Source of the DNA: Blastocystis sp. subtype 4
Taxonomy: Eukaryota
NCBI RefSeq assembly: GCF_000743755.1
Contig: NW_014569539.1
Coordinates: forward strand, 1-64,000
Direction: 5' to 3'
DNA: 64,000 bases
Made by a program: the position numbers and the translations under genes. A model generated the notes under the pieces. The model made no database searches. It was not told the DNA's origin and was given only the letters and a program-made list of their open reading frames with translations. Positions 25,507-53,262 of this stretch are shown piece after piece. Position 1 is the stretch's first letter. Each line of letters begins with the position of its first letter.

Positions 25507-28500
25507 ATGATACCAGTATCATTCACTGTGGACCAGACTTCATTTTCTCTGGAGTTTGATGCTGTTATAACAGTGCAGCAATATAAGACATATTTCACTG
25601 TAATGACGAGAAACAATATTGATTGTTAGAAGGTTACTGGTGTTAGGTTCGAGGAGTTAATCTTCCTCTCTGGAAAGAAGCAGTTGAATGTATCGGTTCC
25701 CTTATTGACTCAGTTAACTACTGGATCTGAAATTAGGATTGGCCGTGCTTTGACACAGTCTGTAACATGGGATAATCATGTCTGTGATGTCCGTTGTTAT
25801 TCAGGATTCACTGTTAGTGAATTCATTTTGTACTGTATCCAATCTCTGAAATTGTCTGGAAGTGCTGATTGCTATTCTATTCAGCGTAAGGATGGAACTG
25901 AATTACCATCATTGACACCGATTCCCTTCAGTGGCTTTCAAGAAAAGATAATGCTAGTGAACAAAAATGCTCTTAAGAAACCACCTCCATATGTGCGCAA
26001 GCCTGCTAATCCAGTCTCAGGCATTGCGGGATGTCCTCCTGTTTTCACAATCGAAATCGGTATAAGTGGTATCTATAGCAACATGGTTGTAAAGAAAGAT
26101 GATTCTGTTGAAACAGTACTACGGCACTATCTTCAGGATACTCTGAAGGACAAGTATAGTGAAGACCTTGTTAAGAACGCTGTATTGCAATGTAATAACC
26201 ATGTATTGAATAAGGGGTTGAAGATGTATCAATGTGGGGTTGTTCGCAAGCGACTTGATTGTCCTTCTTATTGATATCATTGACATTTAGGTATCTTACC
26301 TGAAAAATCCAATACCTTCCTGGTGGATATTTCTTATATGAACAGTTTCAAATATTCCATTGAAGTAACTTCAGAGTTTTATGTTGGCAGTGTTCTTAAG
26401 CAATATGTTCAGGTATGTGGTTTCCGATCATTGAGATCTAGATGTTATACAGAACCCAGTACAATGATTCGTTTTTGGATAAACTTGCACTGTCATCATC
26501 GAATCAGATCCTCCTGAAGGATAGGACACTTGCAGATTATCACATTTTCTCTTCTTGTTCCCTTCTTTGTAGGTTCATATCTTTACTATGATAATCAGGT
26601 ATACTGTATTCCTGGTCAAATTCCAGTACATCTAGAATAACAATCATTGTTGTTCAAGGTCCAAATACCTACAAATATGAAGTGTCTGGTAATATGACGA
26701 TTAAAGCAGTTCTTGAGCTCCACTTGAAGGTCTGATTGTGTATATGACATGATGATTAGAATGCTTATGGTAGTCAGTTTCAGGATCACTTCACTTCTCT
26801 CTTTTCTTTACTAAGAGATGGAACTGTTCTTTCTCTAACGAATACATTGACTGAGAACGGGATTACTTCCTCTACAACACTTATCTGTGAAGAAACAAGG
26901 AAAATCCAAACTATAATCGTGAAGGTGTTTTCTGAAGGTGAAAAAACTGAAGAATACACTGTTCGATTGTCTGATACACCTATGGATGTAATTCAACAGT
27001 ATTGTGGTCAGCGTGATACTATGCTTTGCTTGAAAACTTCTTCTCAAATACTGAATAATGATAAGACTCTTGGTTCTCAAGGTGTTACTGCGGATTCTGT
27101 TCTTGAAGGTAGGAATAGAAAGGTTTGTTGATTTTAGTGGTGTTGAAACCTGATTCAGCTATTTCGATGACAATAAGAATCATCTTTACTTTATCTTCTT
27201 TGAATCAACAGATGTTTGAAGTACTCTATTCCCTTTCCTTACGGGATGCTATGATCCAATACTTGAAGGCTATTGGTTATCCCCACCCTTCACTTCAAAT
27301 GAAAACACTTGTAGTTGTTCTTCATGGATCCTCTTCTGCTCTTTCCAATCTGGATGTTTCTGTTGGCTCTCTGGCTAAGAACTTCCAACTTCATATTGAT
27401 TGTTGGTTGGATGAATGAATGTTGATGTTATAGTATGGACTAGGGAGGAATATGCAAAACTAATTCGTGTTCCTGTAGAACCAACTGTTAATCCGACCAT
27501 ACACCCGAATGGAAATAATGCACCGAAGAAGCCACCTGGTCTAACTATGAATTCATCACCTGGTATTACTCTAAACCCATCACCTGGTCTAACTATGAAT
27601 TCATCACCTGGTATTACTCTAAACTCATCACCTGGTCTAACTATGAATTCATCACCTGGTATTACTCTAAACTCATCACCTGGTATTACTCTAAACCCAT
27701 CACCTGATCCGAGTCCTAAACCATATCCAACACCAACATATATGCGTTCTCTCACCATCGTGTATTTGCATAAAGGTATGAAAGTGGATTATTCCATTAA
27801 TTCTTGGGTACAGACATCTCTAGAGTATTATATCAATGTTCCTATTCGTGTTTCTATTGATTCGTAGAAGTCACTCACTGACACCGAAAGGAAAGATGTT
27901 TTCATTCTCAATACTCAGGGACAATCTATCACTCTTTCTGATCTCGAACGATCATCTAATCAATCTACCAGTGTTTTTATTCTTCCTGTATTGAATTTGG
28001 TTTTGCTCTGATTTAGAAATCGTTATTCACTCTTTCTATGATGAAGGTTGAATCTATTTCTGCTTCTTCAGCTCTCTCTCCTTTATGTTTTGATACTCAT
28101 TCCATTTCACTTCCTCTCTTTACAGTGACATGGTCAATTACGAATTTCAGCAAGTCGCATTTTCGTAATATCATCAAAGCACCACTCTTAAGTAGAGTCC
28201 AAGTCATCAAAGTGTTGAGTCAGAATCCTTCGCTTCTTCTGATGAATAGGTGAAATCAAGAGAGCTCAAGGAGAAATGCAAATTGAGAATCGCACTATGA
28301 CATTGAGTTCTCTTTCTCTACCATACTCAGTCGTCAAATACCAGGGCATTAATGAGATTGTGGATATCGTGTGTAAAACAGGAATGAAGATTAAGGAGTT
28401 GAATATCGAGTTGGATGATAAAGCTACGAAAACAGACAAAGGACGTATTGAATCCAATTGTGGTCAGTTGATACGTCAGTATCAACTCAGTTTCCCTATC

Positions 28501-31500
28501 ATTTTGAATGGTCTAGTTATTGGTCAAATGGAAGGTCCAAAGATTCTTAAGGAAGAAGAGAAGAAAGACCGATTGGTCACAATTCAACAGAAGGATTTTG
28601 ATGGACAGGAATATGAGTTGGATTCCAATCCCCATCGTCACTATGACAATGAAGAATCCATTCTAGTTGGCTATTTCAATAAATCTAATGAGAAATCAAC
28701 ATTAGCCACTCAATCATTTGACTCTCTGATTATTCATTACTTTGCTCGAAGAGAGATTATGGAGAAAAGGAAGAAGAATCAGAATTTAGTACAGAGAACT
28801 ATGCAGTGGTTTACAGCTACTGATGAGTACGAATATGTCTCTGTTGAGAAAGAAGTCACTGAATCCTTTTATACTCTTGCTTCTGCACTGACAGATGGTT
28901 GTGAGTATCTTTATCTTGGTGATCGTCTTTGCTTTTCAGGTCAACCACATTTAGAGAAGATAATTAAAGACTTCTATCTTCCATTATTACCTCATGATAC
29001 TTTCAATCACAATCAAGTGACTGAAGAGATGCATTTCTTTGTAATCCATAATGTCAAGCATGCTACTTTGGCTATTCTCTCTGGGGACAATTTCTGTACT
29101 GTTCTCTGTGAATCGAAATCACTCATCTTTCATTCTCCTTCTTCGAGTGTTAGAGTTATTGTAGCTAAGTCTCCGTATTCAGAAGACTGGAAGTATTATG
29201 AACTGACTCCATATATGACTCGGAAGGCTACAACAGAACAACCTCCATTCATGCATAATACAGAGATGACTGTGAAGCGAAATGAGGTAGTGGAAGATTT
29301 GATTCGCTACAACATTCCTACTCTTATTGAAGGTGTTACATCGTCTGGAAAGACGTTCACTGTGGAGCAGTATTGTAGAAAAGCTCAATTGCCTTTAGTT
29401 CGTTACAATTTCAGTCCTTCGTCGACAGTAGAAGAGTTACTTGGAGATCTTGTGATAACAAATAATGAGAAGAATAGAATCATGTTTAAGGATGGTCCTT
29501 TCACGGATGCTTTCATTCATGGCAAGGTGATTCTTTTGGATGAAATGTCACTTGCACCTCCTCCAGTCATCCAGAGTTTGTTGTCATATCTCTTTGGTAA
29601 AAAGATCCAACATGAAACAACAAAAGGAAGTGAAGAGTGTTTGATGCATCCCTATTTCCGTGTGATAGCAACACAGAACCCTGCTGGAAGTGATTACAAA
29701 CGAAGTGTGATGTCAAGTAACATAAAGGATTGTTTCCGTTTAATTGGACATGCTGAGTCAAAGCGATATTTCCCAAAAATTGATTCAGCAGAGCGACAAG
29801 AGATTATCTGTGGCATGCTTCATGATGATTCTCTTGGGAAACGTGTTGCACAGATTCATGAGAAAGCAGAAGAACGAACTCGTGTTCATGTGAATCCATG
29901 TGATAAGGGAAAGGATTATACACTTCGTGATTGTTCTCGTGCCAAAGCCATTATGAGGGTTTGTCAGAATCTAGAAAGTGTTCCTGATGGACGACGATGC
30001 TTGGATCATGCATTAGAGATTGCATACAATGAAAACTTACGAATTGGACCTTTTCTAGAAGCTCCAGAGGTGACCTTTTCTGAAGATCATTTAGACTTAA
30101 CCTGTTGGTCAAATGTGTATGATCGAGTTCGTCTCGGATTGGATGCTGGTTGCCATATTCTCCTTATTGGAGAGACTGAGTATGCTGCAAGAAAGTATTG
30201 TCGCGCTCTTCTACAGATTCTGGCGGAAGATGGAACGGTATCTGAAATCGTTCATTGTAGCAGTTCATCATCTACAGATAGTGTCATTGGAGGTTATGCA
30301 TTGGAGAAGGATGATAATGATAATCCTGTTCCTCGCTTTGTAGCTTCTCCTTTCCTGAACCGAATAGAGGAGGGTGGAATCTGTGTTCTTCAATCGATGG
30401 AGACAATGAAATCGAATGTAATTGAACGACTGAATTCGGTATTGGAGTTATTGCCCGCAGATGGTCGAACCCACATTATTCGTTTTGATGAACGTAGGGA
30501 AAGCCCTAATGTGATTCTCCATTCATCTTTCCGTGTGATAGCGACTACCTCAGAGAAAGGTCTTCAATCCTTCTCTCCAGCATTACGAAATCGTTTTCTT
30601 GAGATTATGATAGGTTGTGAGTCATCGGTGAACATGAATGATGACTATCAAGGTCAATTCCAATATGATTATGGATTGAGTGAAGAGAGAGAGGCATATG
30701 AGTGTATGGTCCGTTATTCTCATGATTCTAGTTTCTTCTTCAAGCAACACGTTTTAGCAAGTCTTATGTTCATTCGTTATATGACTACAATTCCTCTCAA
30801 TTCTGCAATTGTTGATTCTATTTGTAAGAAATCTCCACTATCTCAATTGAAATCTCTTGGATCTCTGTGTTCTCCAATTTCTAATCTCTTTTATTCTATT
30901 TGTAAGAATAAGGCAACTGCTCTGTATGGACGGAAAATGTGTGGGAAAACATATCTAACTAGACAGATGATCTCTCTCATGTCAATTCGTGAGCATCAGA
31001 TCATTCAAGTGTCCACAGAAACGGACTTTGTAACCTTAATGGGAAGTACAGATATCAAAGGGAATTTCAATCCTGGTGTTTTGATGGATGCGGTAGAAAA
31101 GGGATATCTTGTGATATTTGATAATGCAGAGAACATGTCAATTGAACTGTTGGAACAAATGGATACGATTCTGGATCCATTTACTCATGATTTTACGTAT
31201 CCTATTGCTGAGCGTCATCAGATTCATCCTGCTTTTCGTGCTCTTTTCATATTCACAACACGACGAGATACACTCACAGTTCCTCTTCCTGCCTTTTATG
31301 AAACTGTCAAGTTGCCTGCAATTACTGGAGCAATTGCAAAGTCTTTTATTCAGAATTCGTTTTGCAAAGTATTGTGTGACCATATGGATTCGGGTGAGAT
31401 CTCATTAGGTGAGATCATGATGGTTGAGAGAATCAATACAATGGATTCATCAAAGAATACTATGCTTGTGACTGCTGCGTTATTCGCTGATAGACCTAAG

Positions 31501-34500
31501 AAGAAGGAGGTTTTGCAAACAATTCTTGATAAACACAAAAGTGAACTTAGTGAGAAGGATATGAAGGAAACAGAAGTGATTCTCGAATCCAAAGAGGCGG
31601 TAACATCTGAATCTACGACACATTCTGGAGCCACTCGATTCTCCCGAGGTACTCTTATTGTGGAGAGTTCGCTTCCTTACAATTCTGTTAAGGATACAGA
31701 TTCTGCAGTCAAAACTGCCCTCTTCACCGCCCTTCTAACCAAGTATTCTCTGTTGCGTACTCCACTTCTTCTTGTAGGAGATCCAGATGTGACTAGTGAG
31801 GTTTGTAAGTATCTTGAACCCGATGCATTGCACATGGAAATGTCGAGTTCTATGGAGATGAGTCATGTATTTGGTGAAGTATCTGTATGTCATGAAGAAG
31901 ATATTGAATACATTCTGCGTTCAGTACGTACTTCCAACTTGGATGGAACTCCACTTCAGTTCTATGTTAGTTATCTGGAGGATCAATTAAAGGAGATCAA
32001 AAGTCAAGCAGAGATGTTACATAATAATGGACAATCAGATTCCCATGGAATTACTTCATCAAAGAGAAGTGAAGAGAAACCATCAGTAATTTTGTATCGA
32101 CCTGGTCCACTTCTTCGTGCTATTATGGGAGATCGATCAGTAATTCTTAATAATATCAATCTTCTTAGTGAACATTTGCGACCTCGTCTTTATGCTCTTC
32201 TATTCAATCTTGGAAATGGAGAGTTCACATTGTTTGAGAACAATACTTATCATGATCGACATATTGTTGGAAACAAGCTCAACATTCTGACTACATGTGA
32301 ACCTCTGGATATCAATAGAGTGGAGAATAAGGACGCATATTTTCAAGTGTTCTGTCAATCGTTCTCTTCTAGTGAGATTAGCAAATATGACTTTAAGAAC
32401 AATGATCAATATCCTCTTCATGTACTACGTAAGGCTGATAAGATGAGAGATGCATTCAAGAATCCTCATCTGTATACTCCTCTTTATATCACATACTTCC
32501 AATCAGAAGCCAATAAACGTCAAGAAATGATTGAAATACTTGAGAATGATGAATCCATGAAGTCATTCATTCAATTCTTGCAGATCACAGAAAAGGATGC
32601 TGAAATGAATGATACAAGTCTGATGAATACCTTCTTTCATTCAATACTTCTCAAGAAAGTGATATCAGCTCTTCGTGCAGAGACAGATGATTTTGATAAG
32701 AAGAAGCGAATGCGTTCTCTCCTTCCAACCAAGACTACTCTTCAATTACTCACATCAGTAGCTATTGCGGACTTTAGTCACATCCCGCTGATTCTTGAAG
32801 GTGATCCTGGAGTGGGAAAGACGGTAGCAACAGAAAACTTCTTCCTTTGTCATGATTTTGTGTATAAGCGAATCAGTTTCTCCAACAGTACTACGATTGA
32901 CAGCATTTTTGGTTGTTATTCGTTAGTGAATGGTAATCTTCAGTTTAAGAATGGTAGTATCACAGATCTTCTGGTATCAGGCCCTCAAACAGGAAAACGA
33001 ATAGCACTACTTCTTGATGAAGTGAATTTGGCTCCTTGTGATGTGCTTGAGGTGTTACTATCTTTGGTTCGAGCGTATTGTAATCATGAACGTTTCCAAG
33101 TGCCAGGAAGTGAAGAGATATCAATTCCAGAAGATATGCTTCTTATTTGTTGTATGAACCCAGCTGCAATGTCTGCTAATCGAAGTACTCTTCCTCGTCA
33201 GTTCTATTCTTTCTGTTTACATCATCGTGATATCAAGTATTCAATCCAGGAACTCTTCCTTACTGCTACTTCGATTCTTGCATCTGTTCCAGGAAACTCA
33301 CCAGAAATGACAGACACAATTATGAGTCTTTTCAAGCAATCTTTCTTGTCTTCTCAGAAGACATCCATTCCATTCTCACTTCGTGATGTATTGAAAGTAC
33401 AACAGATTTGTAGTGCTAATAAGACCATTTCTCTTCAAGCTGCTTTGTGGCTTGTATTTGCTTGTCGTCATGAAGAGTCAGAAAGAAGGATTGTTGAGAA
33501 GATTCTTGGTCAGGAAGAACAGAAGAATGTGACGATTGTGAAACGTGAAGATCATTGTGTGGTGACAAGTTTCTGGGAAGTTGTGATTCCTACAACATAC
33601 AATGATTGTTTCCATGAATGGTGTTTCACCACCTCTGAGTTGTTTACAGTATTCAAACTCTCTTTGGCTCTTTTGAGTAAACGAGCTATTCTAGTGTATG
33701 GTTTGTCTCCCTCTGGAAAGAGTTATACGATTTCTTCTATTGCTGATATGTGGGGTATGAGATGTCGAACTGTATATCTGAATCATGAGAGTACTCCTGA
33801 TTCTTTTATTGGTCGTTCTTCTCTAGCAGTAGATGAGAATGGAATAGACCACATTGTATTCCGAAAAGGTCCATTGTTGGAAGCTATGGAAGAAGGTCAA
33901 TGGATTGTGATTGAAGACATTCATTTGGCAAACAATGATGTGATGGAATCTCTTAACTCTCTTTGTGAAGAGAATCCGATAATGAAAGTGGTAGCAGGTG
34001 ATCAAGAATGGACATATGTATCTCATAAGTCATCAAAATCTGGTGGAAATGAAAAGCAGATTCATTCTGACTTCCGAATCTTCTTTACCATTTCAGAGAA
34101 CACCTTGAAACACTTTACTGGACCATTCCTGAGTCGATGTGTGATTATCTACAGTGATCCCATAGCCAGTTCAAAGTCAATCCAAGAGATTTGTTATATT
34201 GTGGGTAAGACTGGCAAACCAGAATGGTTTGGAGAGAAAGAGGAACACCAATTCCGTCGTTGCATGCGTGTGATCAATAGTGGAGATGAGAAATCCTTTG
34301 CTATCGAGTTTGGATATGAGCCACGTCTCAACGAGCGATTGGTAACATTTGAGATCCCTCATTCGATTGAATCGGACCTGGAGGATCTGATTGAATCAAT
34401 AGCAAAGATATCTGATGAGGAACGATTTAATCAGACTCGAAAGGTGTTGATGCGTATTTGCGACTCTACACCCATGTCATTCAATCGTAACGATGTTTGT

Positions 34501-37500
34501 CAGCATCTCTCACAGTCGAAGCAGTATTTAGAATCTTCATTCATCTATTACATTGTGGATGTACTTACTAGGTTCCTTGACTCTACAGAGACATTTGAGA
34601 ATAGTGTGATTCGAAATCAAAGTGGTGATTTGGCTTCAATTCTTCATCGATGGTTCATCTTGAGTGATATTCATCCTCCTCTGTATCCAAGAAAGAAAGC
34701 TTCAGATTTCTGTTTTAGCAAAGGTACTCAATTGACATACTTCTTCAACATTTCCCAAGAAGACAATAATCAGTTGTATCTTCTATACTATATCTGTGGT
34801 CGAACTGCAGAACTAATTGATACTCTTGAGTATGATGAATTGAAGTCTCTATTCGAATCAATATTTGTGTATATGGACAGTATGATGAATGAACAGATGA
34901 TGATTACTTGTACTTGTGCTGTTGACAAGATTCGTACTGAGTTTTTGTTGGCCAAGAATAAGGAACGTGATTTCACGAGGACACCAACATTGGACAATGT
35001 GTTAGCAACACGTACTATTCGTGAGGCAATTGAGAATGAAATGAAGAAACTCCCTGAATCAGTTCAACACTGTGATGGAATGAAACTTATATCAGGATTT
35101 GTAACAGAACTAGACTCTAAAGTAGCTAAAGATTATTTGGATAAGAAGAGTGATTCTCTTGAAGATGATCAGACTCAACAGTATCGATTCCGTGATGTGC
35201 TTCATCACTGTGGACCCAACAAGACCCTTCAGGATAACATCAAGAAGGCTTTCGATGGTCGAATTGATAGTACTACATTTAATCAGTTGGGAATTAATGG
35301 AGATGTGGAGAAAGAGTACCATGAATATGAATATAAAGCTCCTTATCAAAAAATGATTGCAAAGACTTCTCATTGTCTGTATAAGTTGAACAAATTCCAT
35401 TGTCAAGCAGTGATTCTGAATGAATATGCTGATGTTTTAAAGGAATTGAAGATTGATATTGTGGATGCATTACGTCATTTTGGAAACTATGAGAGTGACG
35501 TGAAAGATTCTTTGATCATTCTTCTGAATGCCTTGTTATGTGTGTATAGGAAGAATATTAATTGGAAGGAATTCGTTAATAACTATCACATGTATCCTTT
35601 CCTAATGCCCCGTCCTCAGACAGAACAAGCAATCCAAGAAGCCATTGATATGTTGAATGAGAATGACTGGTTTGAATCACAAGTGGGACAGGTGAAGGAT
35701 AAGTATAAATACAAGAAGAAGAAGGATGCCTATGAATCTATTAGAAATGATCTGATACGAAGATTGAGCGTAACAGACATGGAACCTATTCACTTAGAAT
35801 CTATTGCTATTCTTCAGACTCTAGATTCTGATAACAAGAATGAGATTGTTAAATTGTCATATTCAAAGATTGCGAAAGTTCAGTCACTATGGAAGTGTGA
35901 TATGTCAGCAGATGTGGAAGAGGGAATGGAGATTCCTGCTCGTGTATTAGGATACGAAGTGGAATTACAATCATCACTGTCAAAGAAGGAAGATGAGTTG
36001 TTCCACTTGGTTTGGTCATCTTCTTGTAAGTTGAGTTTTGAGGAAAAGCTTCGAGTTGTATGTCCAAGAGAGCGATCATCATTGGAAGAAGTGGTGATTG
36101 ATATGTATAACAATGAGATACTTTGCTATTCCCTGAAGAAAGCATTAAGAGTTGCATCATCGATTGATGAACTGATTGAGAAGGTCCAAGAGGAACTACG
36201 TGAACAGACGAAGAACAAGATCGTTGTAAAGGATAAAGAGATCCAGAGAGTGTCCGAAGGGTTACGTATAGCACGCAATGAGTTGAGAGAGGCTGAAACC
36301 TCGCTTTCGTTGAAGAAGACTGATATCATTGATAAGTATACAAGAATTGCTGATGACTATAACAGACAACACTTTGGGAAGACTTCTGATGATTTAATTC
36401 GTAATGATACAGCGATTCGTGTGTATGCATATCTGTTAGCATTCAATCAACTGAATCAGGGTATGTTTCAACCATACTGGTCAACTCCCACGAAGAATCA
36501 ATTTTCCTTTAGTCCACGAATACCATCTCTACGAAGTGATTATTCTCCTTTTGCTTTCCAAATTGTTCTAGTTCCCAAGGATGCCAAGTTTTTGTCAAAG
36601 AAGAATGGTACTCTAAAACTGACGTTAAGTCCTCCAGAAGGATTAGAATTCTTACTGAATAGAATTGATTATGTGATAACTAAGGATGGATTTCTTCCAG
36701 AATCCCTAACACAGCACCATCTGATGGTGGTACTTCCTCTGGCTCCATGGAAATGGTATGTTGAGACAAAGGATAAAGTGGAGTTTGAACTTCGATATTA
36801 TCAGAATACTATGTCTATACTATCATCAGCAAAGAAATCAAGTAGAAGCTATAGTTATGGTTACTATAATTCGATTTACTATGATGGTAACATATATCTC
36901 AGTCTTGTTCTCTTCTTAACAATGTTGAAACTACGAGACTATAATGGTTTTGCTTACAACGTACAAGGTCGTCCTGAAGACTTCTATGTATATGGGCTTT
37001 CTCATCGTCATACTGGTTCTTGGTCAAGTTCTATAGTGTCATTAAGTCAGAATGAATGTCCTTCATTCTATTCAATGCATAGCCATATTAATTTGTTATG
37101 TTCTGAGATCACATCAGCAAGTCAGATTGTGGATCTATATGTTCTTGATTATTCTGTAAAAGGAAATGCAAGACGGTGTGATCAGTATGTGAGTATTCCT
37201 CGTGACAATAATGCTAGAATGGCATATTATGATTCCAGTTCTTCTAATGATGTGTATGCGTATAATCAGCTACTAGATAAGAAGATCAAGAAGAATCAGG
37301 TAGTAGGAGAGTTGGAAACACAACTGAAAACCAAGGAGGATGAAAGGAGGAATCTAGTTCAGAGTAGTTCCAGTGCTTCTCAATACTTCTTCCCAGATAT
37401 CACAAGCAGTTCAAAAGAATTTGTTGCTCAGACTACGGAATTGAATGATGTTATTCTGATGATTATGGATGAAAATGAAGTCTCACTTTGTCTTCCTAAG

Positions 37501-40500
37501 AAGGATACATTCTATTTGCCAACACGTTATATTGGTGTGGATGGTAAGCAAATAAGCATACCTATAATCAAAACACATGATTCATTGCAGTTAGTTGTAA
37601 CAAGCAAAGATCCTTCTGTGGATGTTATTGCTGATACTACACGAGTATCATTAATATTGAATACAACAGAGGAGGGAAAGAAGATTGTTGAGTTGAAGGC
37701 TGAAGTGATGATTGATACTAATAAGGAACCTGTATTGGTGAAATCGATATTCGTTGTATTCACAGTGAAACGTCTTGAGTATGTTCGTACCTCAGAACCT
37801 TGTTTTAACTATTACTATTATCTGTATCCTCCACATGATAGTCTAGATGTCTGGTTCAGTGATAGTCCAAACCCAGTTCATGTTTCCTCTAGGTATGGAT
37901 ATAGTCAGTCAATTGGAAAGACTCGTAGTGTATATGTTAACTTTGGAACAAGATATGGTGAAAAGCCTCATTCTCTATTTACATTCAATAAGAATACTCT
38001 TGTTCCATTCGAGCGTGGCAAGTCTTCATCTAATCCTATCAGCATATCAAAGAGTGTTTCTGCGAATACTGATGCATTAATAGAACAATTGAAGTCAGAA
38101 ACCATGTCAGTATTCTTGAATGCTCTCAACAATTTATGTCTTGGAATTCTATCAGCAGACAAGAAACAAAGAGCAGAGATTCAGTTGATTCTCAATGCCT
38201 GTGAGTCAAGTCATTATTTGTTGCCTTGTATCCGAAATCGAACTTATACCATGTTATGTCTGATAACACAAGGTAGTTCATCTCTTCAATGGAATACAGA
38301 AACAGTGATAACTCATAGAGTTATTGAGGAGAATGTGGTGATCGATAAGGAAGTAAGTGGAACAAAGACAACAGTTATGTTGGATACTGAAGCAAGTGAT
38401 AGTTCGAAAGGAGGATATCGAATCTCAGATGATGTGAAGAGTAAGGTGTCAGCTGCTGTGAATGCAGTGATCATTGATACTGGTGTATCTCAGGAAGAAG
38501 AGAAAAAGAGGGATAAGAAGAAAAAGAAGAAGAAAGATGACAAAAAGGTCGATGAAAACGAAGAACGATATCGTGGTGAAAATTACAAGAACTTCTTAAA
38601 AATGATGGAGAAGAAGAAGATGGATGAATTGTATGAGATGATCAATAATCGTCGATTGAAAGAACGATTCGTTACTCCAACTGCAACAGCATCAACTCTT
38701 ACAAAGGAGTCATTTAAGAAGAAGACAAGGGATATTGAAGAGAAGTTACTCCTTCCAATTCTAACAACTAGTTCTCAACTGGTTGCATTGATGTCAGAGA
38801 GTTCTGCCTTATCAAGGGAGCCATCATCAACTGTAAATGTGATTATTGATACAAATTGTACTCACAGAACAAAGAAGAGTCGAATACGTTCTATTATCAC
38901 ATCAATCCTGGTGACAGTAATGAAAGAGATTGGTATTCATTGTCGTCTCTTTGTATCATGTGGTCGTTACAAGGGAGTACTCATTCCTATTGAGGATCAG
39001 TCTCTAACTGATGTGGTTTCTTTCATCTTTGATACAGAATTGATAGTAAAGCTTCCTTCAACACCTCTAGACCTATTGATGGTGACAGGACAGTTCAATG
39101 AGAAAGATCCTATTGTGATTGTGGGAGATGGAATGAGTGAACAGTTGATATCCTCTTGTGCATCAGTGAAGGCAGTCTTTGATAGTCATAAGGACCAAAT
39201 GTATCTATTCTGTGTGATAGGGAATGAAGAAGAAGCTTTGTTGAAGAGCAATCAACAGTCACTTGAGAATCAGCTCAAAGCAAACTTTGGAGAGGGATAC
39301 ATTGCAATTAATAAGGTCAGTGATCTCTTACATAACTGGGAAATCCTTAAGGGAATCATGTTCACCAAGGAACCAATGAACATAGTGAACTGTTCTGAAC
39401 CAATGAATGTAGCTACAATTGTTGATTCGATCGATGAGGATCTAGAAGCAACATTCTCCTCCAACAAATCAGTAACATTCCAGTGTATCATTACAAGTGA
39501 ACAGAATGCAAAGTTTGTGGAGATTCTGGATGCAGATTTGACGGTAACTCCATCAATGTCGACTTCTTTGACACTTAACGATCTGAATGTATTGATCTCA
39601 GCCGATAATCTATTTGATGCTTTGAGTTCGAATCTCTTTGTACCCAACAAGTCAACTGGATATGTTGCAAGCACTTCAGGAACCTCAATTCACATTGCTA
39701 ACTATATCAAGTATATTGTAAGCAAGGCAGGTGATGGAAAACTATTCAAGAAGCTCGGATCCGATAAGGTTCGTTCGTATTGTGCCTCAATTGTCATTGA
39801 CTGTTCATCACTTGCCTTCAGCTACATCAATCGAGTACATTCCCTTTTAACAGTTCTATCATTGCTCCGAAATATTAGCAATCTCCAATTACCATGTGTC
39901 GATATATGGGTTGCCGGTTCCACAGTAACTCGTATCTGTACAGGGTCTCCATCAGGTGATTTGTGGGAGTCCAATGTGATCCTGAGTCTGCTTTCTACAC
40001 TTCATTCACCTTGTCATAATACAACCCTTCCTGATTGTATTCGCTATGCCTGTTGTACGAGTAATTGTCGTTCATTTTCTTCTCTGATGATTGTTCTCAC
40101 AAATGGTGTGGTGTCTGAAGCAGCTCGTAATGAGATTCGAGCCATTGTCCATGGTGTAGAAATGACATACATTGGAATAGGTCTTGGTCAGTATTTGAAT
40201 GGATTCAAAGATTTGTTCCCCACAATGTTATGGTCTGCAAATCCTGCTCTATTGAATCAAGCAATCATGAATATCAGTAATCCTTCAGACAAAGCAGAAG
40301 TCTGTTATGCAGTTCCTGAGCATGAGATCACTCCTGAGATAAAGGAAATGAAACATGCTACTTGTTTTGATGATATGGTGAAGAACATCTCGGCAATTGC
40401 TAGTACTTATGAGATTGCATTGAGTAAGAACCGTATTCTTGATAAAACTGAATCTGGAAGTATGGAGGTTGGTCAGTACAACAGTAGTGTCAATGATCTT

Positions 40501-42156
40501 GGTGAAGATGGTGGTTTTGGTGAATACACGATTCTGTTTGTGATTCTGTATCTGCGTCGAAGTGATGAAAAGGATGAAAATGGGAAGATACAAGATGAGT
40601 TCATTACTGAAGATGTGTTACGTTATGGAAAGGACCCTATAAAACCATTTTCCCCAGTTATCAAGTTGGGTCATGGTAAGGATCATAGTGGTAATCCTAT
40701 TGGAAAGGGATTCAACATTTTGTATGCTTTTGATTATGAGACTGCAATGGAGATTCTTCGAAGAGGAAACATTCGTGTGATATTTATCACTTGTTCTCCT
40801 GGAGATGGAGAGTTCCCTTCACAAGGAAAGAGTGGAAAACAGGACTTCTGTGATTCTTTCTTGGATTGTGTCTACACATTCAGTGAGAATGGAGGAGGTG
40901 TGTTCTGGTTCCTTGAGAATATGCCTTATACGTATGAGGCAGATCGTTATTTTCAACGCTTTTATGGCTTTGAAGCTGTAGGTGATAAGGAGAAATCGAT
41001 TCAAGGAGGAAATATGATGATACGGACAAAGAAGACTGTTCCAAAAGCAGGCCATTTCATTACAATAGGAGGTGATGTGACGGACTTTGATCAGTTATCG
41101 AAGCTTGATTTTGGTATTAAGGAGATCTCAGAAGGAACAACACTATGTAAGTTGAATGAGAAGAGATTGGAAGAGAATGGATTCGAAGTATTTGCTATGG
41201 AGAGTGAAGGAAATGCTTCGATTATGGTTCGGAACAATGACTCAGTTGATACCAGAGGTCGAATGATCATTGATACAGCTGCTTCCAAGTTATTCCTGGA
41301 GTTCACCTCAGAGGGAACAGCTCGATGGATAAGTAATGCTGCAGTTTGGTTGTGTAATGTGGAACAGTTCTCAGATGCGAAGGCAAGAGATGAAAATGCA
41401 AAGTCTGGAATCGATATGAGTAATTTTGGAACTGATAAGATGAAGAAGCGGCCATTTGAGAAACGTGAATTTGTGACAAAGGTTATTGATTTCTGTGTCA
41501 CAATTATTATGGACACTACAGGATCTATGCATAGTTACATTGAAGCAACCAAGAACAACATCATGAACGTATTAGAAACACTTCAAGAAGAAGAAAGGCG
41601 ATTAGTTAAGAGTGGGAAGATCAAGGGAAGTCACATTGTTGGTCAAGTGGTTGAGTACAAAGACTTTGGCGATACAATCAACAGTTCAGAGTTTATTACT
41701 GAAGATTTCAACCAACTTAGGAGGAAGTTATTTGCATTTACAGCAACTGGAGGGTGCGGATGTAATAGTTACTGTGAAGATATGCAAAGTGGATTTGAAA
41801 GAGCAATTAAGGAGATGAAGAAGTATAGAGATTACAATCATATGATTCTTGTGTGTGGAGATTGTCCCAATCACTCAGATGGAGGATGCAGTCGCAAAGA
41901 AAATCCACGTCATCACAAGAGTTTCAGTTTTGTATGGGAAATGATCTATCAAGATCTTCGTATGTTCCCTTCCTTAAAGGTAATGTTTATGCCAGTAGAT
42001 GGAGATGATATGCTTAAGACTGCTCGTGTTATTGAGAAGGGACTTGGACATGATATTGCTCAGTCACAAGCAGTCTCAAATAATAGTAAAGAGTTTGCAA
42101 ACTATCTAATAGAAACGATTCGGGATGGGTTCAGAGGACTTCCAGGTATTTCATAA
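25507..42156 (+). CDS. Giant (~5449 aa) multi-UBL / six-AAA+ (midasin-like) / vWA x3 / GATase-1-like protein
   Basis: Frame-consistent introns 25600-25629, 26261-26290, 26413-26441, 26569-26598, 26730-26759, 27109-27137, 27402-27433, 27838-27867, 27988-28016 and 28219-28249 join the UBL exons to the 4626-aa ORF. Walker A motifs GVTSSGKT, GRKMCGKT, GDPGVGKT, GLSPSGKS; terminal MIDAS DTTGS. Confidence 0.85.
27535..27702 (+). repeat. Coding minisatellite, 7 x 24 nt (PGLTMNSS / PGITLN[P/S]S)
   Basis: Units cctggtctaactatgaattcatca and cctggtattactctaaac(c/t)catca in the order A-B-A-B-A-B-B. Confidence 0.95.
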
Positions 42157-42379
42157 GTTTATTTTGGATGTTATATTTGTTATCATGTAACAATCGTCTT
42201 TCCATTCATTTTTTAAAATCATTCCAATCATTTCTACTGATAATCTGAGAGGTAATAAGCTACATTCGGATTAGCATGGATCAAATCAACAAGCAGCTCT
42301 ATGAAAAGTATCTCTGATTTTGTAATTCCATTGTGTAATCAATCTTCATCCTGGAACAGTTATCTTCACACTATTGTTG

Positions 42380-43310
42380 ATGTCAGTGTCCAAGCTTGCA
42401 ACTAAGCTTGATATAACAAAAGTCATTACAAAGTCATCCAATTCTTTCAAGTATTTAATAGAAGAGGAGTAAACAATAGATCTCATCTTGATGATTCGCT
42501 TACAAAGCATTATGCATCAGTTACATCCATATTATCTGTTGTTTCAGAAGGAAGAGGGTAGTTGTAGAGTCTGTTGATTTGTAGGTTTTTCCAGTTGGAG
42601 GCAGAAAATAGTACTCGATTCGTATGCTAAGCAAATCATGTTTACACAGAAGAAGCAAGTAGGACTCGAAACAATCAATCATTGACAGCCAAATCGTGTG
42701 TTTTCGAAAGATGACTTAGATTTTATGCGACGAGCGGCTGAAAGTGCACCATCTGAAGGTAAATGTGATGGATTCATGTGATTGTAGAGCTTCGAAAGAG
42801 TGGGCTATTTGGAAGTGAAGTACATGATATTCTAACTAAGTTGATATCAGGTCAAACCGTCAAAGAAACGCCCAACACAAAAGCATTGATTTCTGGTTAT
42901 CGGTTGTGGAAAAAGCAACACTCTATCGATATTTACTTTACAGATGTATTCGTTCAACATCCAAAGTACGAATGGGGGACGGTTGACAAGTAGATATCAG
43001 TATTCTGGATTTGTCGATGCAATAGGAATGAATCATGAAGGCGATCTAATCATTATCGATTTTAAATCAGGTAAATCTGTCTATGAGTACTATGCACTCC
43101 AATTGGCAGCATATTGCAAAGCAGTTGAAGTGACATGTAACTGTAAGGAATCTATTCAGCACGCGTATGTATTACGATTTAATCGTGATAATGCCAATTT
43201 TGACTTCCTGAAGGTGATTGACATTGATAAGTGTTTTACATATTTTCTAAACTGCATTGAGCTAACAAAGATGAGAAAAGAAAAGAATGGCTTCTTTGAA
43301 GAGATTCTAT
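42380..43310 (+). CDS. PD-(D/E)XK exonuclease (RecB-like / MGME1-like)
   Basis: YASVTSILS, GSEVHDIL, YSGFVDAI, IIIDFKSG, YALQLAAY; ATG 42380 joined by intron 42433-42461; genomic TAG at 43324 but a poly(A)-made stop is predicted at 43310. Confidence 0.85.
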
Positions 43311-43314
43311 TGTC

Positions 43315-43322
43315 TGTTTGTT
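43315..43322 (+). terminator. TGTTTGTT 3'-end/polyadenylation element (example)
   Basis: The same motif follows gene ends at 3174, 3512, 11845, 13845, 16056, 17116, 19601, 23121, 48957, 49024, 51576 and 55434. Confidence 0.85.
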
Positions 43323-43330
43323 AGAATTGT

Positions 43331-45269: not shown

Positions 45270-48200
45270 ATGAGTATTGAGATGGTCGATTCATCAACGA
45301 AGCCAGAGAATGGAGGGGCTTCTGAAAAGTAAGTGTGTTACTTCTTTTCGAACATAGTATGATTGAGCACTCTACCCAGGAAGTGGGAACAACGGGTAGT
45401 CTCCCACGACTTTATTCTGTGTATTGGTATTTCTAGACTCTAAACTGTAGTTCTGGTCGCTATGAAGATAGTTTTGTGGGTAATTTGTAATTGTATATTC
45501 ATGGTCTTTATTGTAGCGATACGTATGGAAGTTATTCGGCTAATGGAATGTATGGAAATCATGCTTCTCTGAACTATTTATTTGGTAACTTAGGATCGAC
45601 GACAAAGAATACGAAGGTAACTAAATGGATTGTTTCTAATGATCAGACACGACGAGCAGAGATTCGTTACGATGGAAAGGGAACCATTCTGAATTATACT
45701 TCGTTAGTTGCCGTTGTTAACTGGATGATGAATTAATGTTTAGGAAATGTTCCTGTTGAAAGACAAGGAAGGATTTATGGGTGATAATATTCTGAATCTT
45801 GTGGGTAGGATCAAATTTGAAGATATGACAATTAGATCCTTCCTTTGTGAAAGAGAAGGGAGAGAAAGCAGTTCAAGAAGCCTTTGGACTCTTTCAGGAA
45901 GGTGCATCAGGCTCTCCTGAAATCCAGAAGGAACAAGGAGCTTCGAAACTTGTAGGAGTGAAGACTAATGGAGCATCGTTTGAGTTATCAGTAACCTTGG
46001 TGAAAGTGAGTAGCAATGTAATAACTGCGCGTCTATCCGATGGATCAGAAGTCACAGTACAGGCACCTCACATGTTATCATCTTCGTCATTCAGTAGCTA
46101 TGCGGATACACTGAGTCACTCTCATACTTACAGTGTGGGATCTGTGGGACAGAGTTCATTCTATGGTCGTGACTACACATCATCTATTAACCAGTTTGGT
46201 GGTCTAGTTGTTGACATGGCTGAGATTGGTACTGATAACGAGGAATGGGTTGGAACAGGTCGGTATTGTGAGGGACAAGAGGAAGTCTTTGAAGAAGGAG
46301 ACACTCGTTTTGGTGGGATAAGTGCTGTGTCACTAACAGCTTTCTCAGATCTACGTCGTGGACTGGAAAATGGTGTGATATTATTGGATACAGAAGCAGA
46401 ATCACTTACGGATGTGGTGAATGCAATGTTAGACGATGTGGAAATGAGACAGATCGCAACTCCAGAAGTCCGAGATCCCTTAGTTCAACTCTTCTCAAAG
46501 AAGGATGAATCTCTTCCCCTTATCCAAGAAGGTGAACAGAGAGAGGGTTGTAAGGTGTATGTTGCGAAACTCTCCTTTTTAACAAAGCCAATCATTGCTA
46601 TGGTTCGTTTGAAGAGTCCTATTGTGGTTCAAGAACAGTCACCTCTTCTCATTCGGTATTTCTTATTTGTATTGGGTTCGAAGACTTGTACTTCAACAGC
46701 TCAGTACTTCTATTGGAATGGGATCATTTGTAGGCTTCATGAAATGGGTCGTGCCTTCTCGTTAATGATGTCTCAGAACTGGTTTAGTAGTGCTGCTCGT
46801 AAGATCAACACAGATCGTCTCTTCTTAAAGTTGATGGATAATTTTATGACTCGATGTACCATGCTTCCACCACCTGATCCTTACGCTGCTAATCCATTCC
46901 AACGTCGGAATGTTATGGGTCAGACACATGGCTGCTGTGGAAAGAAGGATCAACAAACGATCACAGTATTCATGCCAAACACGACATTCCAGAGAACCAA
47001 TCACCAGTTGCGCAGACGTCAGAGAGTCTTGAATGAGCATGACAATGTGTTGAAGACAGAAGCATTACAGAAAGAGCCAACAGTGGAAGAACTGGAGAAG
47101 GAGAAGCCATCTCTTTACATCAGTCATTTGACAGTACGAGACTGGATCGTGGGAGGTATCACCATTGCTTGTTGTATTGCAGTGTTAGTACTATTGTTGG
47201 CCCATCATTTCGTACCATATGATGATGGCAAGCACGTAGTTCCCATGCTTGGTTACTCAATGTCTATTTTTGGAGGACTCAAAGCTATCACTAGTGCTGA
47301 ACCTGCATACTATGCGTAATTCCCGTGATTTAGGATTATCTTTAGTTTACCAGATTCCCCGCGGGGATTGTATGAAGTACGTACAGCCATTCAAGCTAGT
47401 CCGGAGCCCTATACCTTGAAATTACAGTTATTTGAACGAATTGGTGAAGAGGAGATTCCTCATGGCACACTAACAGACATTATCTCTGCTGCTGAGACTG
47501 AGACGGAGTCTCTTCAGGAAATCGATGTGGCTTCGGAGTTGAAACCAGCAGGAGAGAGTGCCTTGTTTATGAAAGTAACTACAAATAGTACCGCTCCAGT
47601 GAGTTTCGTGTTGTATGCTGATCCAATGAATCCTATTGGTCGATATCGTATTCTGCTGGGTAGTATCATTCTTGTTGGAGTATATGTGCTTCTCCTTCTT
47701 GAGGTGATAAATCGTGCAGTGGTTGCATTCATCGGAGCATTCTTAACTCTCCTTCTCATCAGTTTTGTTCATGATGCTCCTTCTCTATCAACTGTTATCA
47801 GTTGGATGGATGAAAGTACGTTGTGTCTTCTCTTTGGTATGATGATCATGATTCAAATGTTATCAACCACGGGAATGTTCGAGTTTTTGGCAGTCCAGAT
47901 GTTAACCCTCACCAAAGGTCATATTTTGGCCCTCAACATCTCTCTATGTCTGTTAACAGCCTTGTGTTCAGCATTCTTAGACAATGTGACCACAATGCTG
48001 CTAATAGCTCCTGTTACAATAGAGTTGTCTCGAATGATGGAGGTAAATCCAATTCCATTCTTACTACCTGAAGTAATCTATTCAAACATTGGAGGAACTG
48101 CTACTCAGATTGGGGATCCCCCAAATTTGATTATTGGTAACATGCTGAAAGAACATATTGGATTTGTTGACTTCATAAAGCATGCCACTCCGTGTGTCCT

Positions 48201-48954
48201 GATCTGTCTTATCGTTGTATATCCCTTCGTGCTGTTTTACTATCGAAAAGATTTATTGAAACCAAGAGTTCAGGTTGATGAGTCACTGAAGGAGAAATAC
48301 CAGATAAAAAATAAACCACTTCTCTTGAAATGTGGAAGTGTCCTAATCACCGTCATCATCCTGTTTTTCTTACACTCATTCCATCATATCGATACTGCGT
48401 ACATTGCTATTGCAGGCGCATTTGCTTGTCTGTTCTTAGGAACAAATGAAGACTTGCATACAACATTTGAATTGTTGGAGTGGGAAACCTTAGTCTTCTT
48501 TGCTGGTCTTTTTATCATGATTGAAGGAGTGAATGAGTTAGGTGTTATTCGAGCTATTGGAAATGGAGTTTCAACACTAATTATGAGTTCACCTCCTAAG
48601 TATCAATCCTTATTGGCTCATATGTTGATTCTATGGGTATCAGGTTTGGCATCGTCGATTTTAGATAACATTGCATTCACAGCTACCATGATACCAGTTA
48701 TTCGCATTCTAGGTGAACACCCTGAATTGAGTCAAAGAATGGACATCTATACGTTAGCTTGGGCACTTGCTTTTGGTGCTTGTTTTGGTGGTAATGGAAC
48801 CTTAGTAGGTGCAGGAGCGAATCTGGTAACGGCTGGTATTTGTGCAACAAATGGTCATCCAGTCAGTTTTGGTCAATTCTTCAAATTCGGTTTTACCTGT
48901 ATGATGATCACCATGATAGTCTCTACAATCTATGTATGGATCCGATATGTTTGA
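45270..48954 (+). CDS. Band-3/SLC4-type cytoplasmic domain fused to an OCA2 (P-protein)/ArsB-NhaD permease
   Basis: SLC4-N motifs DLRRGLENGVILLD, KPIIAMVRL, RYFLFVLG, HEMGRAFSLMMS; 30-nt intron 47316-47345 joins in frame to the permease with SAFLDNVTT, NIGGTATQIGDPPN, LDNIAF, GGNGTLVGAGAN. Confidence 0.85.
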
Positions 48955-51585: not shown

Positions 51586-53041
51586 TTAATTCCATTCAAC
51601 TGGTTTCTCATGTGGATAAAGATACTGAGCTTTTCCAGCAGCCACCGACTCCGGCCCATGATCTCGACAATGATAATCGTAAATGACATCTTGGGGTTCT
51701 CGAATTCCCATAGCATAACGGACTTCATTCATGATATACAATGAACCACAAATTAACAGAATGTCCTTCGGACCACATTCATCTAAAACTCGATGAAGAT
51801 TGTTCGGAATAGTATCAGCAACTCCATCTCTCTCTATGTATAAGTCCATTTATCCACTGTAACCGTCATTCCATTGCCTTCCCAGAGCATCATTGCAACG
51901 ATGGAGAGCATCTCGAAGACATTCACATTTCATTGCTCGAGGGTGGCTGCTGTTTATCAAACGCATCTTATCCACTGTTGTATGCTGTAAAATCACATTC
52001 AAACAATCGGATACGTTCTTATCTGCACAGAATCCACAAATCATCTAAATGTCAATCTCACATCTTTCTTACTCGAATCGTTCGATCTCCGTACAATTTC
52101 TTCATTGTTGCATACATTGCGTGGAATCCAGGTTGATTGTGACATACATCCAGAATCACTTTCACCTGCTCTCCACGGCTGTTTGGAAGAGTGAATTCTT
52201 CAAAACGGCATATCGGACGTTCCTTGGTTGCCGAGAGAATCACATCTTCAGGAACATGGAATTTTCCGTGGGAATACTCATTCAGAGTACGAAGTGCCTG
52301 ACATGCGATTGCCGTGTTTATTGCATCATAGGTCTCTTCCTGATAGTTAGGAACCATCACAGGAACATAGGGCGAATGATGACTGCCTGCGATGTTGTAG
52401 ATCTGTTGGTGAGGACAGTTTGGGCCTACAACCACAGGCTTGTTATCCTTAATAATGCCAGCCTTCTCGCGAGCGATGTCAGTAATGGTGTTTCCCAAAA
52501 TGCCCTGGTGATCGAGTCCAATGGATGTAATCACACTCAGTTCGGGAGTGATGATGTTCGTAGAGTCTAAGCGGCCTCCTAGACCAACTTCGATAACAGC
52601 TACATCCACTTGCTTTTCTCTGAAATAGTTGAATGCCATTCCAGTCACACTCTCAAAAAAACTCAACGAAGTAGGAAGTGTCGGCTCAATCTCGTTGATG
52701 AGTTGGAGGTTTTTCACCACATCTTCCTCTGAGATCATTTCTCCATTGATTGTGATTCTTTCACGGAAACTGGAAATATGTGGCGAAACATACATTCCCG
52801 TCTTGTATCCAGAAGCCTGAAGTGCCTTCGCAATTTTGTAGACAACCGATCCTTTTCCATTGGTTCCTGTGACATGAATTGTAGTAATTTGGTTCGCAGG
52901 ATTCCCCAGTTTCTGATTAAACAGTATCATATTCTCTAGACCCATTTTCACTTTGAAATTCAGGTTCTTAGAGTACAGAGTTCGTAGCAGATCTACAAAT
53001 CGGTTCTCATCCACAACATTACTCGTATATGTAGGGTTCAT
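51586..53041 (-). CDS. folC: Folylpolyglutamate/dihydrofolate synthase
   Basis: HVTGTNGKGS, YVSPHI, EVGLGGRLDSTN, GLDHQGILG, IAREKAGI, LDVCHN, ICGSLY. Confidence 0.95.
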
Positions 53042-53262
53042 TCTGCAGCACAACGATTCAAGAAGTCGAAGTGAATGTCAAAGCAAACCGAATTCAACTA
53101 TCCAGCGATTAATCGTTCCCAAAAGTCCATATGATGAAACTTCCGATCTGTTTTGTGGAATTGCAGAATTCATTGATTCTCGATAACCCAAAAGTGAGAA
53201 GAGATTTCCTGATTTTAGAATTGATTCGTTGTGCTACAGTCCAATTCTGATTCACTGGAGAG

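Follow-up and report, generated by a model that had tools for sequence, protein, structure and literature searches.

In the excerpts of a 2024 study on Rea1, no single-chain six-AAA protein is named besides dynein, RNF213 and Rea1 itself (PMC11603028; this and all further citations refer to excerpts or supplements of the papers). Midasin is a motor of ribosome biogenesis that takes Rsa4 and Ytm1 off pre-60S particles; its AAA1 and AAA6 have no Walker B Glu, and MIDAS is its last domain. Rea1, the midasin also called MDN1, was reported to hydrolyse ATP at AAA2-5, and an inhibitory insert in AAA2 acts as a brake (PMC6286127). Its MIDAS domain needs the motif DxSxS...T...DG plus an acidic residue of the ligand; in addition, element II of this domain is a ring-docking loop with a PY-type nuclear localisation signal, and element III is a hairpin that anchors the ubiquitin-like (UBL) ligand (PMC6624252). 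A related principle has been described for the pairs NorQ-NorD, CbbQ-CbbO and RavA-ViaA, in which a MoxR-clade AAA protein is coupled to a vWA gripper (PMC7159879, PMC3495828). In our study we analysed a gene of Blastocystis sp. subtype 4 on a stretch of 64,000 nucleotides (nt) (contig NW_014569539.1, positions 1-64,000; hereafter the window). The gene is located at 25507-42156 on the plus strand, to which all coordinates refer unless stated otherwise, and its spliced model with 11 exons encodes 5449 amino acids (aa). Like midasin, the predicted protein has a single-chain six-AAA ring of the dynein-midasin-MoxR clade, a long linker and a C-terminal vWA domain of the Rea1-MIDAS type (vWA2) with an element II loop. 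The sequence comparisons support its assignment to a midasin-derived, apparently undescribed family of oxygen-avoiding protists, in which it is a paralogue and not the MDN1 orthologue.

Relation to canonical midasin

In a tree of modules AAA3-6 calculated under a mixture model, 11 midasins and 17 family rows, five of them from Blastocystis, were separated by a 100/100 split, and the family rows had long branches. P0070 and P0097 were omitted from this tree since their six modules were not detected. It contained no outgroup beyond midasin and therefore leaves the branching order open. The InterPro entry Midasin is listed for 4/8 and NLE domains for 8/8 Blastocystis strains in the supplement of PMC10690189; the canonical pathway is therefore present in the genus. 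A first-pass annotation of this DNA had proposed a midasin-derived paralogue, and both the split and the separate Midasin entries support this.

With a threshold of E <= 0.001, a profile of the vWA2-GATase region (GATase, glutamine amidotransferase) matched 1243 representatives; the listing covered the 150 best. All 14 of the 30 looked-up relatives that carry an organism name belong to Blastocystis or to metamonads, namely Tritrichomonas foetus, T. musculus, Kipferlia, Aduncisulcus, Dysnectes and Chilomastix, and the family may range wider than these groups. Six AAA modules together with the full vWA2-GATase region were found in 22 of the 36 long proteins matching the profile. Their N-termini vary from about 20 residues up to a kinase with Sel1-like repeats, with a UBL array in the Blastocystis orthologues, and several genomes contain paralogues (at least three in T. 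musculus; at least two each in T. foetus, B. hominis and Blastoise). We found no published description of the family or its architecture, which subscription papers and unseen supplements could mention; one table row in PMC9896827 reads 'Midasin-like protein', the identity of which is unclear. The first-pass annotation did not recognise the architecture either. This still holds for the literature found, whereas the core is shared with metamonads and is not unique to Blastocystis.

All six AAA modules that had been predicted were located in the proposed order (aa 1165-2785), and their residues were compared between the 17 family rows and the 11 midasins. AAA1 (29299-29757) has intact Walker A, Walker B (DE) and sensor-1 motifs and is predicted to be catalytic; its Walker B DE is present in 16/17 family rows compared with 0/11 midasins. 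The opposite was observed for AAA2 (30136-30618) and AAA4 (31750-32361), which have lost their Walker motifs and in which Walker B DE occurs in 0/17 family rows and in 11/11 midasins. The arginine finger of AAA2 is kept in all 17 family rows, which would fit AAA1 being the main site. AAA2 lacks the helix-2 insert and comprises 161 aa (155-185 in the family), whereas the 11 midasins have 234-284 aa. AAA3 (30898-31320) keeps Walker A, its Walker B reads D-N and the module is predicted to be non-hydrolysing; none of the five Blastocystis rows has DE at this site. AAA4, in which an insert is present, has also lost the arginine finger, a residue that would serve AAA3 and that is found in 0/5 Blastocystis rows compared with 12/12 other family rows. 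The Blastocystis rows have thus lost it together with the glutamate of AAA3. Walker A, Walker B (DE) and sensor-1 are intact in AAA5 (32767-33231), which is also predicted to be catalytic, and AAA6 (33667-34161) keeps Walker A and the arginine finger with a Walker B that reads E-D; all five Blastocystis rows retain the AAA5 DE with the AAA6 arginine. At the sequence level these counts establish a catalytic residue pattern different from that of midasin, with AAA1 and AAA5 as predicted active sites in contrast to AAA2-5 in Rea1.

In a single-sequence search of the PDB, midasin was the closest solved relative of the ring (135 bits vs 25 for CbbQ), and RNF213 was absent from the 15 matches. RNF213 and the dynein heavy chain are single-chain six-AAA proteins as well, and RNF213 joins such a ring to ubiquitin. 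However, neither of them was contained in the PDB matches of the ring, the dynein P-loop hits in Pfam were weak and no E3 module was found. Neither RNF213 nor dynein is known to have vWA domains. The MoxR-vWA pairs share the coupling of a MoxR-clade AAA ring to a vWA gripper, and the NorD vWA was among the top Foldseek hits; those systems are homo-hexamers with a separate vWA protein, whereas here one eukaryotic chain carries three vWA domains.

The ring is followed by a linker of about 1500 aa (34201-38757) with a lysine-rich run near 38500. It lacks the D/E-rich spacer: the maximum D+E content per 200 aa was 0.195 in the window protein vs 0.34-0.54 in 7/7 midasins measured. No PDB sequence matched the linker at E < 0.1. 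The Pfam scan of the open reading frame (ORF) revealed no midasin lid family, and no RING/RZ or other E3, nuclease or effector family at E <= 1, the linker of about 1500 aa not having been folded.

For the last 1132 aa a model based on 113 sequences (pLDDT 82.5, pTM 0.51) showed four alpha/beta domains, the mutual placement of which is not reliable. These folds follow each other as vWA, vWA, GATase-like and vWA, the order given in the first-pass annotation. vWA1 (38815-39375), assigned from the secondary structure of the model and column counts, has a degenerate MIDAS (D-T-N-C-T). vWA2 (39553-40284) is of the midasin type according to structure match and alignment, with Z 17.1 to Rea1-MIDAS 6qta (rmsd 3.0, 203 aligned residues) and Z 15.8 to human MDN1-MIDAS 8ql1 (rmsd 3.0, 197 aligned). 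Moreover, the family profile matched 11/11 midasin C-termini with E 1e-12 to 7e-5 per sequence. The MIDAS of vWA2 is degenerate (D-C-S-S-L and T-N-G) since the second Ser and the second Asp are lost; across the family these ligands are kept at S58% and D67%, and the decay is strongest in Blastocystis. An element-II-like loop is retained, matching Rea1 in length and register, and its Pro-Tyr is found in 0/10 family rows vs 8/10 midasins. A region matching element III of Rea1 is lacking, which was read from a length difference because the automatic alignment is loose there.

The GATase-like domain (40519-41388) was recognised by structure match and modelled separately (pLDDT 90; Foldseek E 5e-5). 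It resembles the N-terminal domain of IFT52 (Z 14.8, rmsd 2.9, 199 aligned) and ThuA-like proteins (Z 14.5, rmsd 3.1, 211 aligned). No His column reached 60%, and at the single Cys column (60%) the window has Val; as judged from the alignment, the domain has no conserved Cys-His pair and lacks the Cys-His-Glu triad of active class I glutamine amidotransferases. The ThuA-like and IFT52 GIFT domains share this fold without the catalytic Cys-His pair, but the domain described here matched no Pfam family, has conserved motifs of its own and is placed between two vWA domains. The last domain, vWA3 (41479-42132; structure match and column counts), is a generic vWA (Pfam VWA_4, E 0.013) and the sole one of the three with a canonical MIDAS (D-T-T-G-S ... 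G-D; D95% and S94% across the alignment). Unlike midasin, the protein thus carries an additional vWA1 before vWA2, a GATase-like domain and vWA3 behind it and a UBL array at its N-terminus, and it belongs to a clade of its own. It lacks the AAA2 insert, the D/E spacer, the loop Pro-Tyr and element III, and the MIDAS of vWA2 is degenerate. While it departs from midasin in five tested features, by analogy it would work like midasin in outline.

A further question was whether the gene had been acquired by lateral transfer from a parabasalid, which could not be established. Blastocystis grouped with two T. musculus-type rows with bootstrap 100 in two plain-model trees, whereas support dropped to 76/85 under the mixture model, and the composition of these T. 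musculus-type rows is biased.

Several observations concern other members of the family. A second Blastocystis paralogue (P0006, P0169, P0215; cluster of B. hominis CBK22547/CBK22548) ends after vWA2 without the GATase-like domain and vWA3; its Walker motifs are decayed and it is possibly an inactive partner. In P0070, P0199 and P0205 (4500 aa) two AAA modules were detected compared with six in a 6023-aa member of the same cluster, and they are probably truncated calls. One of the 68 members of alignment A7 also matches Hsp70 (E 3e-165), which may reflect either a genuine fusion or a chimeric gene model. In supplement file 7 of PMC10690189 (row 487, labelled 'Dynein') AAA_5 (IPR011704) is counted 17, 12 and 11 times in tortoise Blastocystis, 19 times in Proteromonas and 1-3 times in human Blastocystis strains. 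Some of the AAA_5 proteins counted there as 'Dynein' in Blastocystis may belong to the vWA2-GATase family.

Gene structure and the N-terminal region

The modal intron of Blastocystis was reported to be 30 nt long, and TGTTTGTT to be its polyadenylation motif (PMC5608401, PMC10690189). In the window, which has a GC content near 39%, introns comprise 29-32 nt, TGTTTGTT motifs are found at gene ends and the closest named homologues of the gene are Blastocystis proteins. The large ORF (28246-42156) has 4636 codons from stop to stop and 4626 aa counted from the first Met. Ten GT..AG introns of 29-32 nt (25600-25629, 26261-26290, 26413-26441, 26569-26598, 26730-26759, 27109-27137, 27402-27433, 27838-27867, 27988-28016 and 28219-28249) join the upstream exons to this ORF in a frame of 5449 aa with zero internal stops, as had been claimed in the first-pass annotation. 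A shortest-path search gave ten as the minimum number of introns for an open frame, and 0/100 dinucleotide-matched (Markov) controls and 0/8 antisense chunks could be joined by GT-AG introns of 26-36 nt. The last intron (28219-28249, 31 nt, phase 1) connects the UBL exons with the large ORF. A pyrimidine-rich, in-frame GT..AG stretch of 39 nt at 28087-28125 is a possible eleventh intron; the orthologues have a phase-1 intron nearby. No exact TGTTTGTT is present on the plus strand between 25507 and 42156, and a one-mismatch copy is located just past the stop codon (42174-42181). Contigs from three runs of the same sample were almost identical, of low depth and without splice joints, and thus uninformative.

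Orthologous loci were obtained by scanning metagenome contigs, which yielded ten loci: two near-identical to the window, three that were modelled (L002, L005, L006) and five with too little upstream DNA. The modelled loci share 58-59% identity with the window in AAA1-2, each has 10 kb of upstream DNA, and this DNA matches the UBL exons of the window (tblastn E 6e-11 to 5e-9). In the models of all three loci, 15 introns of 29-31 nt connect the UBL exons with the AAA frame. Five of the ten window introns, including the junction intron, are found at identical column and phase in 3/3 loci, one is kept in 2/3 loci, and two lie 8-9 columns off with unchanged phase. Intron 1 is GC-AG in L006 (6112-6142) and L002 (6198-6227) and GT-AG in L005 and the window. 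The window protein aligns continuously with the three orthologues across the region of the junction intron. In the orthologues the stretch corresponding to the start of the large ORF is interrupted by three further introns, so that the first Met of the window ORF at 28276 has no counterpart there. In the exons of UBL1-7, L005 and L006 differ by 50 synonymous and 26 non-synonymous codon changes, and 53 of the 80 base changes are at third positions, which shows a coding pattern of substitution. The gene structure is thus consistently found in four lineage samples, and the whole 5449-aa chain is very likely encoded by a single spliced gene. The proposal of one gene in the first-pass annotation agrees with the conserved junction intron and the continuous homology in the three loci.

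The UBL units were assigned with differing firmness, units 1, 2, 7 and 8 less firmly than units 3-5. A profile built without the window sequence and run on 64 targets scored UBL3, UBL4 and UBL5 (aa 169-413; 26041-26894) with 19.3, 39.4 and 20.5 bits, whereas the best of 200 shuffles reached 5.0. The orthologous exons exceed the Pfam ubiquitin cut-off (37.8, 40.4 and 32.4 vs 25.4 bits), and we consider these three units firm. UBL6 and UBL7 (aa 417-573; 26904-27435) are probable on the basis of weak hits and collinearity. UBL6 has a sub-threshold Pfam ubiquitin match (E 0.0041; exon 6, the sole window exon touching Pfam ubiquitin) and a leave-one-out test with 0/200 shuffles; with the cross-lineage profile it scored 1.1 bits and UBL7 -0.5 bits, so that UBL7 rests on collinearity. 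UBL1 and UBL2 (aa 1-143; 25507-25965), which contain intron 1, were placed by collinearity with the orthologues, and the identical column and phase of this intron in 3/3 loci support the assignment. The exon orthologous to this region gave a weak Pfam ubiquitin match (E 0.0088), and in the window sequence neither Pfam nor the cross-lineage profile gave a direct ubiquitin match for the two units. Behind UBL7, a Pro/Ser/Gly-rich linker of 8-aa repeats (27533-27706) is directly visible and varies between alleles (L008). It is followed by a possible eighth, divergent beta-grasp unit (aa 677-747; 27745-27987), placed by collinearity; introns 8 and 9 are common to the orthologues and the L005 copy scored 11.9 bits. 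Of the seven to eight UBLs in the first-pass annotation, units 3-5 are therefore firm, unit 6 is sub-threshold, unit 7 is weak and units 1, 2 and 8 depend on collinearity.

The best PDB sequence matches of the UBL repeat profile were Rad23, OASL and ISG15-type UBLs (E 0.006-0.013). None of the units has a Gly-Gly end. In this respect the array resembles integral-UBL adaptors, which differ from the 7-8 divergent tandem units fused to a 5,400-aa ATPase. Introns of the array recur at phase 0 after the helix and at phase 1 at the last strand (window 25507-27435 and L002/L005/L006), which suggests that the array grew by duplication of an intron-bearing unit.

Between the array and the ring we found two regions that the first-pass annotation had overlooked, although its order of UBLs before AAA modules was right. 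An LRR-like stretch (leucine-rich repeat; aa ~748-925; 28017-28580), recognised by eye, spans the junction intron and has no Pfam match. The adjacent pre-ring domain of unknown fold (aa ~930-1140; 28618-29250) was delimited by comparison of members; it occurs only in Blastocystis members, including the tortoise isolate and the second paralogue, and gave no match in Pfam and no PDB sequence match.

Among the 64 targets the UBL profile gave no score above 1 bit for family members outside the Blastocystis orthologues, and one midasin reached 6.1; other family members of at least 3000 aa that were scanned stayed at shuffle level. By eye, the tortoise-isolate paralogues P0005 and P0054 seemed to have possible UBLs, but these had no profile match and were discarded. 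No stand-alone UBL-array protein (369-2000 aa) was detected at E <= 0.01 among 7995 candidates, although this is a weak test.

Possible function and alternative interpretations

Since the ring is related to midasin but wired differently, it probably pulls on other targets. By analogy to Rea1 and NorQ-NorD, we give about even chances to an ATP-driven extractor of non-ribosomal targets in which the UBL array is a lineage-specific docking module and not the protein's own substrate. The array would bind proteins of the ubiquitin system or other adaptors and position the motor; since all units lack a terminal Gly-Gly, it would be neither cleaved apart nor conjugated. The intact MIDAS of vWA3 would grip an acidic residue of the target, and vWA2 would dock its Rea1-like loop on the ring, with force transmission kept and metal-bridged ligand binding lost. 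ATP hydrolysis at AAA1 (with the arginine finger of AAA2) and AAA5 (with that of AAA6) would remodel the long linker and thereby pull the target off its complex, and the GATase-like domain would be a non-catalytic binding platform.

Several points weigh against our interpretation. The UBL docking, the gripping by vWA3 and the pulling mechanism are inferred from analogies, and canonical midasin was listed for other Blastocystis strains, not for this genome. Modules 3-6 of the family best match modules 3-6 of midasin, but modules 1 and 2 best match midasin 3 and 4, so descent in register is not clean. Concerning the gene model, gene callers invent introns and fuse genes in Blastocystis (PMC5608401, PMC10690189), and the introns of the orthologues were picked by the analyst under the same short-intron assumption as those of the window. 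Nothing in L002, L005 and L006 corresponds to introns 4 and 5, and the upstream neighbour genes differ from those of these loci. Besides, four one-mismatch polyadenylation motifs within the UBL part (25620, 27122, 27397, 27401) would allow a short UBL-only isoform; their places are not common to the orthologues, and the large ORF contains another 12.

That the UBL array and the AAA-vWA giant are two adjacent genes fused only in the model is scarcely probable. The annotation pitfalls mentioned in PMC5608401 and PMC10690189 would fit this, as would the public database versions P0002, P0003 and P0004, which begin at or after the pre-ring domain; however, the junction intron is conserved with unbroken homology across it, the first Met at 28276 is unmatched in the three loci and none of the 100 controls was joinable. 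A second midasin specialised in ribosome biogenesis is very unlikely as well. In its favour, the closest solved structure is that of midasin, vWA2 retains the element-II-like loop and the lysine-rich stretch ahead of vWA1 could act as a nuclear signal. Against it, Blastocystis has canonical midasin and NLE proteins, and the D/E spacer, the AAA2 insert, the loop Pro-Tyr and element III are all lacking.

Both UBLs and a midasin-derived vWA occur in a single chain, and the ligands of Rea1 are UBLs (PMC6624252), so that a vWA domain could grip the protein's own UBL, resulting in autoinhibition or head-to-tail polymers. The intact MIDAS of vWA3 would permit this, and the missing AAA2 plug makes another brake plausible. 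In the window, in L005/L006 and in L002 the last loop of UBL2 contains an acidic residue, which we take to lie near the position where Rsa4 and Ytm1 donate theirs. Nevertheless, most repeats lack a shared acidic residue in this loop, and metamonad and tortoise-Blastocystis members keep the core without a detectable UBL of this type. Moreover, two MIDAS ligands and the region of element III are missing from vWA2, which is most decayed in Blastocystis, the lineage that carries the UBLs; with the Rea1-type vWA decayed in just this lineage, the idea loses its Rea1 template, and we regard it as distinctly unlikely. The first-pass annotation had placed MIDAS grippers together with UBL handles on a single chain. 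Both are present and vWA3 is canonical, but this proposal is weakened, as vWA2 is decayed and has no element III. A cell-autonomous defence or sensing ATPase similar to RNF213, whose variable N-termini would detect invaders or stress and whose ring would act via the ubiquitin system, is unlikely. It would be consistent with a constant core behind interchangeable N-termini (UBL array, kinase with Sel1-like repeats, or none), several paralogues per genome, long branches and the existence of bacterial MoxR-vWA conflict systems (PMC7159879). On the other hand, the Pfam scan gave no E3, nuclease or other effector family, none of the 15 PDB matches of the ring was RNF213, the subtypes have well-preserved orthologues and intron positions, and the neighbouring genes are housekeeping genes. 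This function overlaps with that of an extractor, since an extractor could act in defence.

Neighbouring genes and significance

Downstream of the gene, the window contains a PD-(D/E)XK nuclease-like ORF (42890-43324) and, further downstream, a Mur-ligase-like ORF on the minus strand (52058-53077). A Band_3_cyto ORF (496 aa) and a CitMHS/ArsB-type transporter ORF (541 aa), separated by 9 nt (45829-48954), are probably one gene that combines an SLC4-type cytoplasmic domain with an ArsB-type carrier. The remaining genes nearby have housekeeping functions (Tudor-SN, Vps8, Not3, EMP70, acyl-CoA synthetase).

A much broader proposal, which we consider quite improbable as a whole, is that the family is a fourth single-chain six-AAA class restricted to anaerobic protists and possibly derived from parabasalids. 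Its exchangeable N-termini would be sensors; in mammal-associated Blastocystis vWA3 would grip the protein's own UBLs as an off-switch or for chaining of motors, and the protein would act in innate defence. Returning to the midasin-derived family that our comparisons support, it is a further multi-paralogue family of single-chain six-AAA proteins, which differs in its predicted firing pattern, lacks a built-in plug and has a tail of three vWA domains. Database versions of the Blastocystis members miss the N-terminal part. The family may serve as a natural experiment on how the Rea1 ring, its plug and its MIDAS loop produce force, and through the UBL array a motor of this kind would be connected to the ubiquitin system in the most common protist of the human gut.

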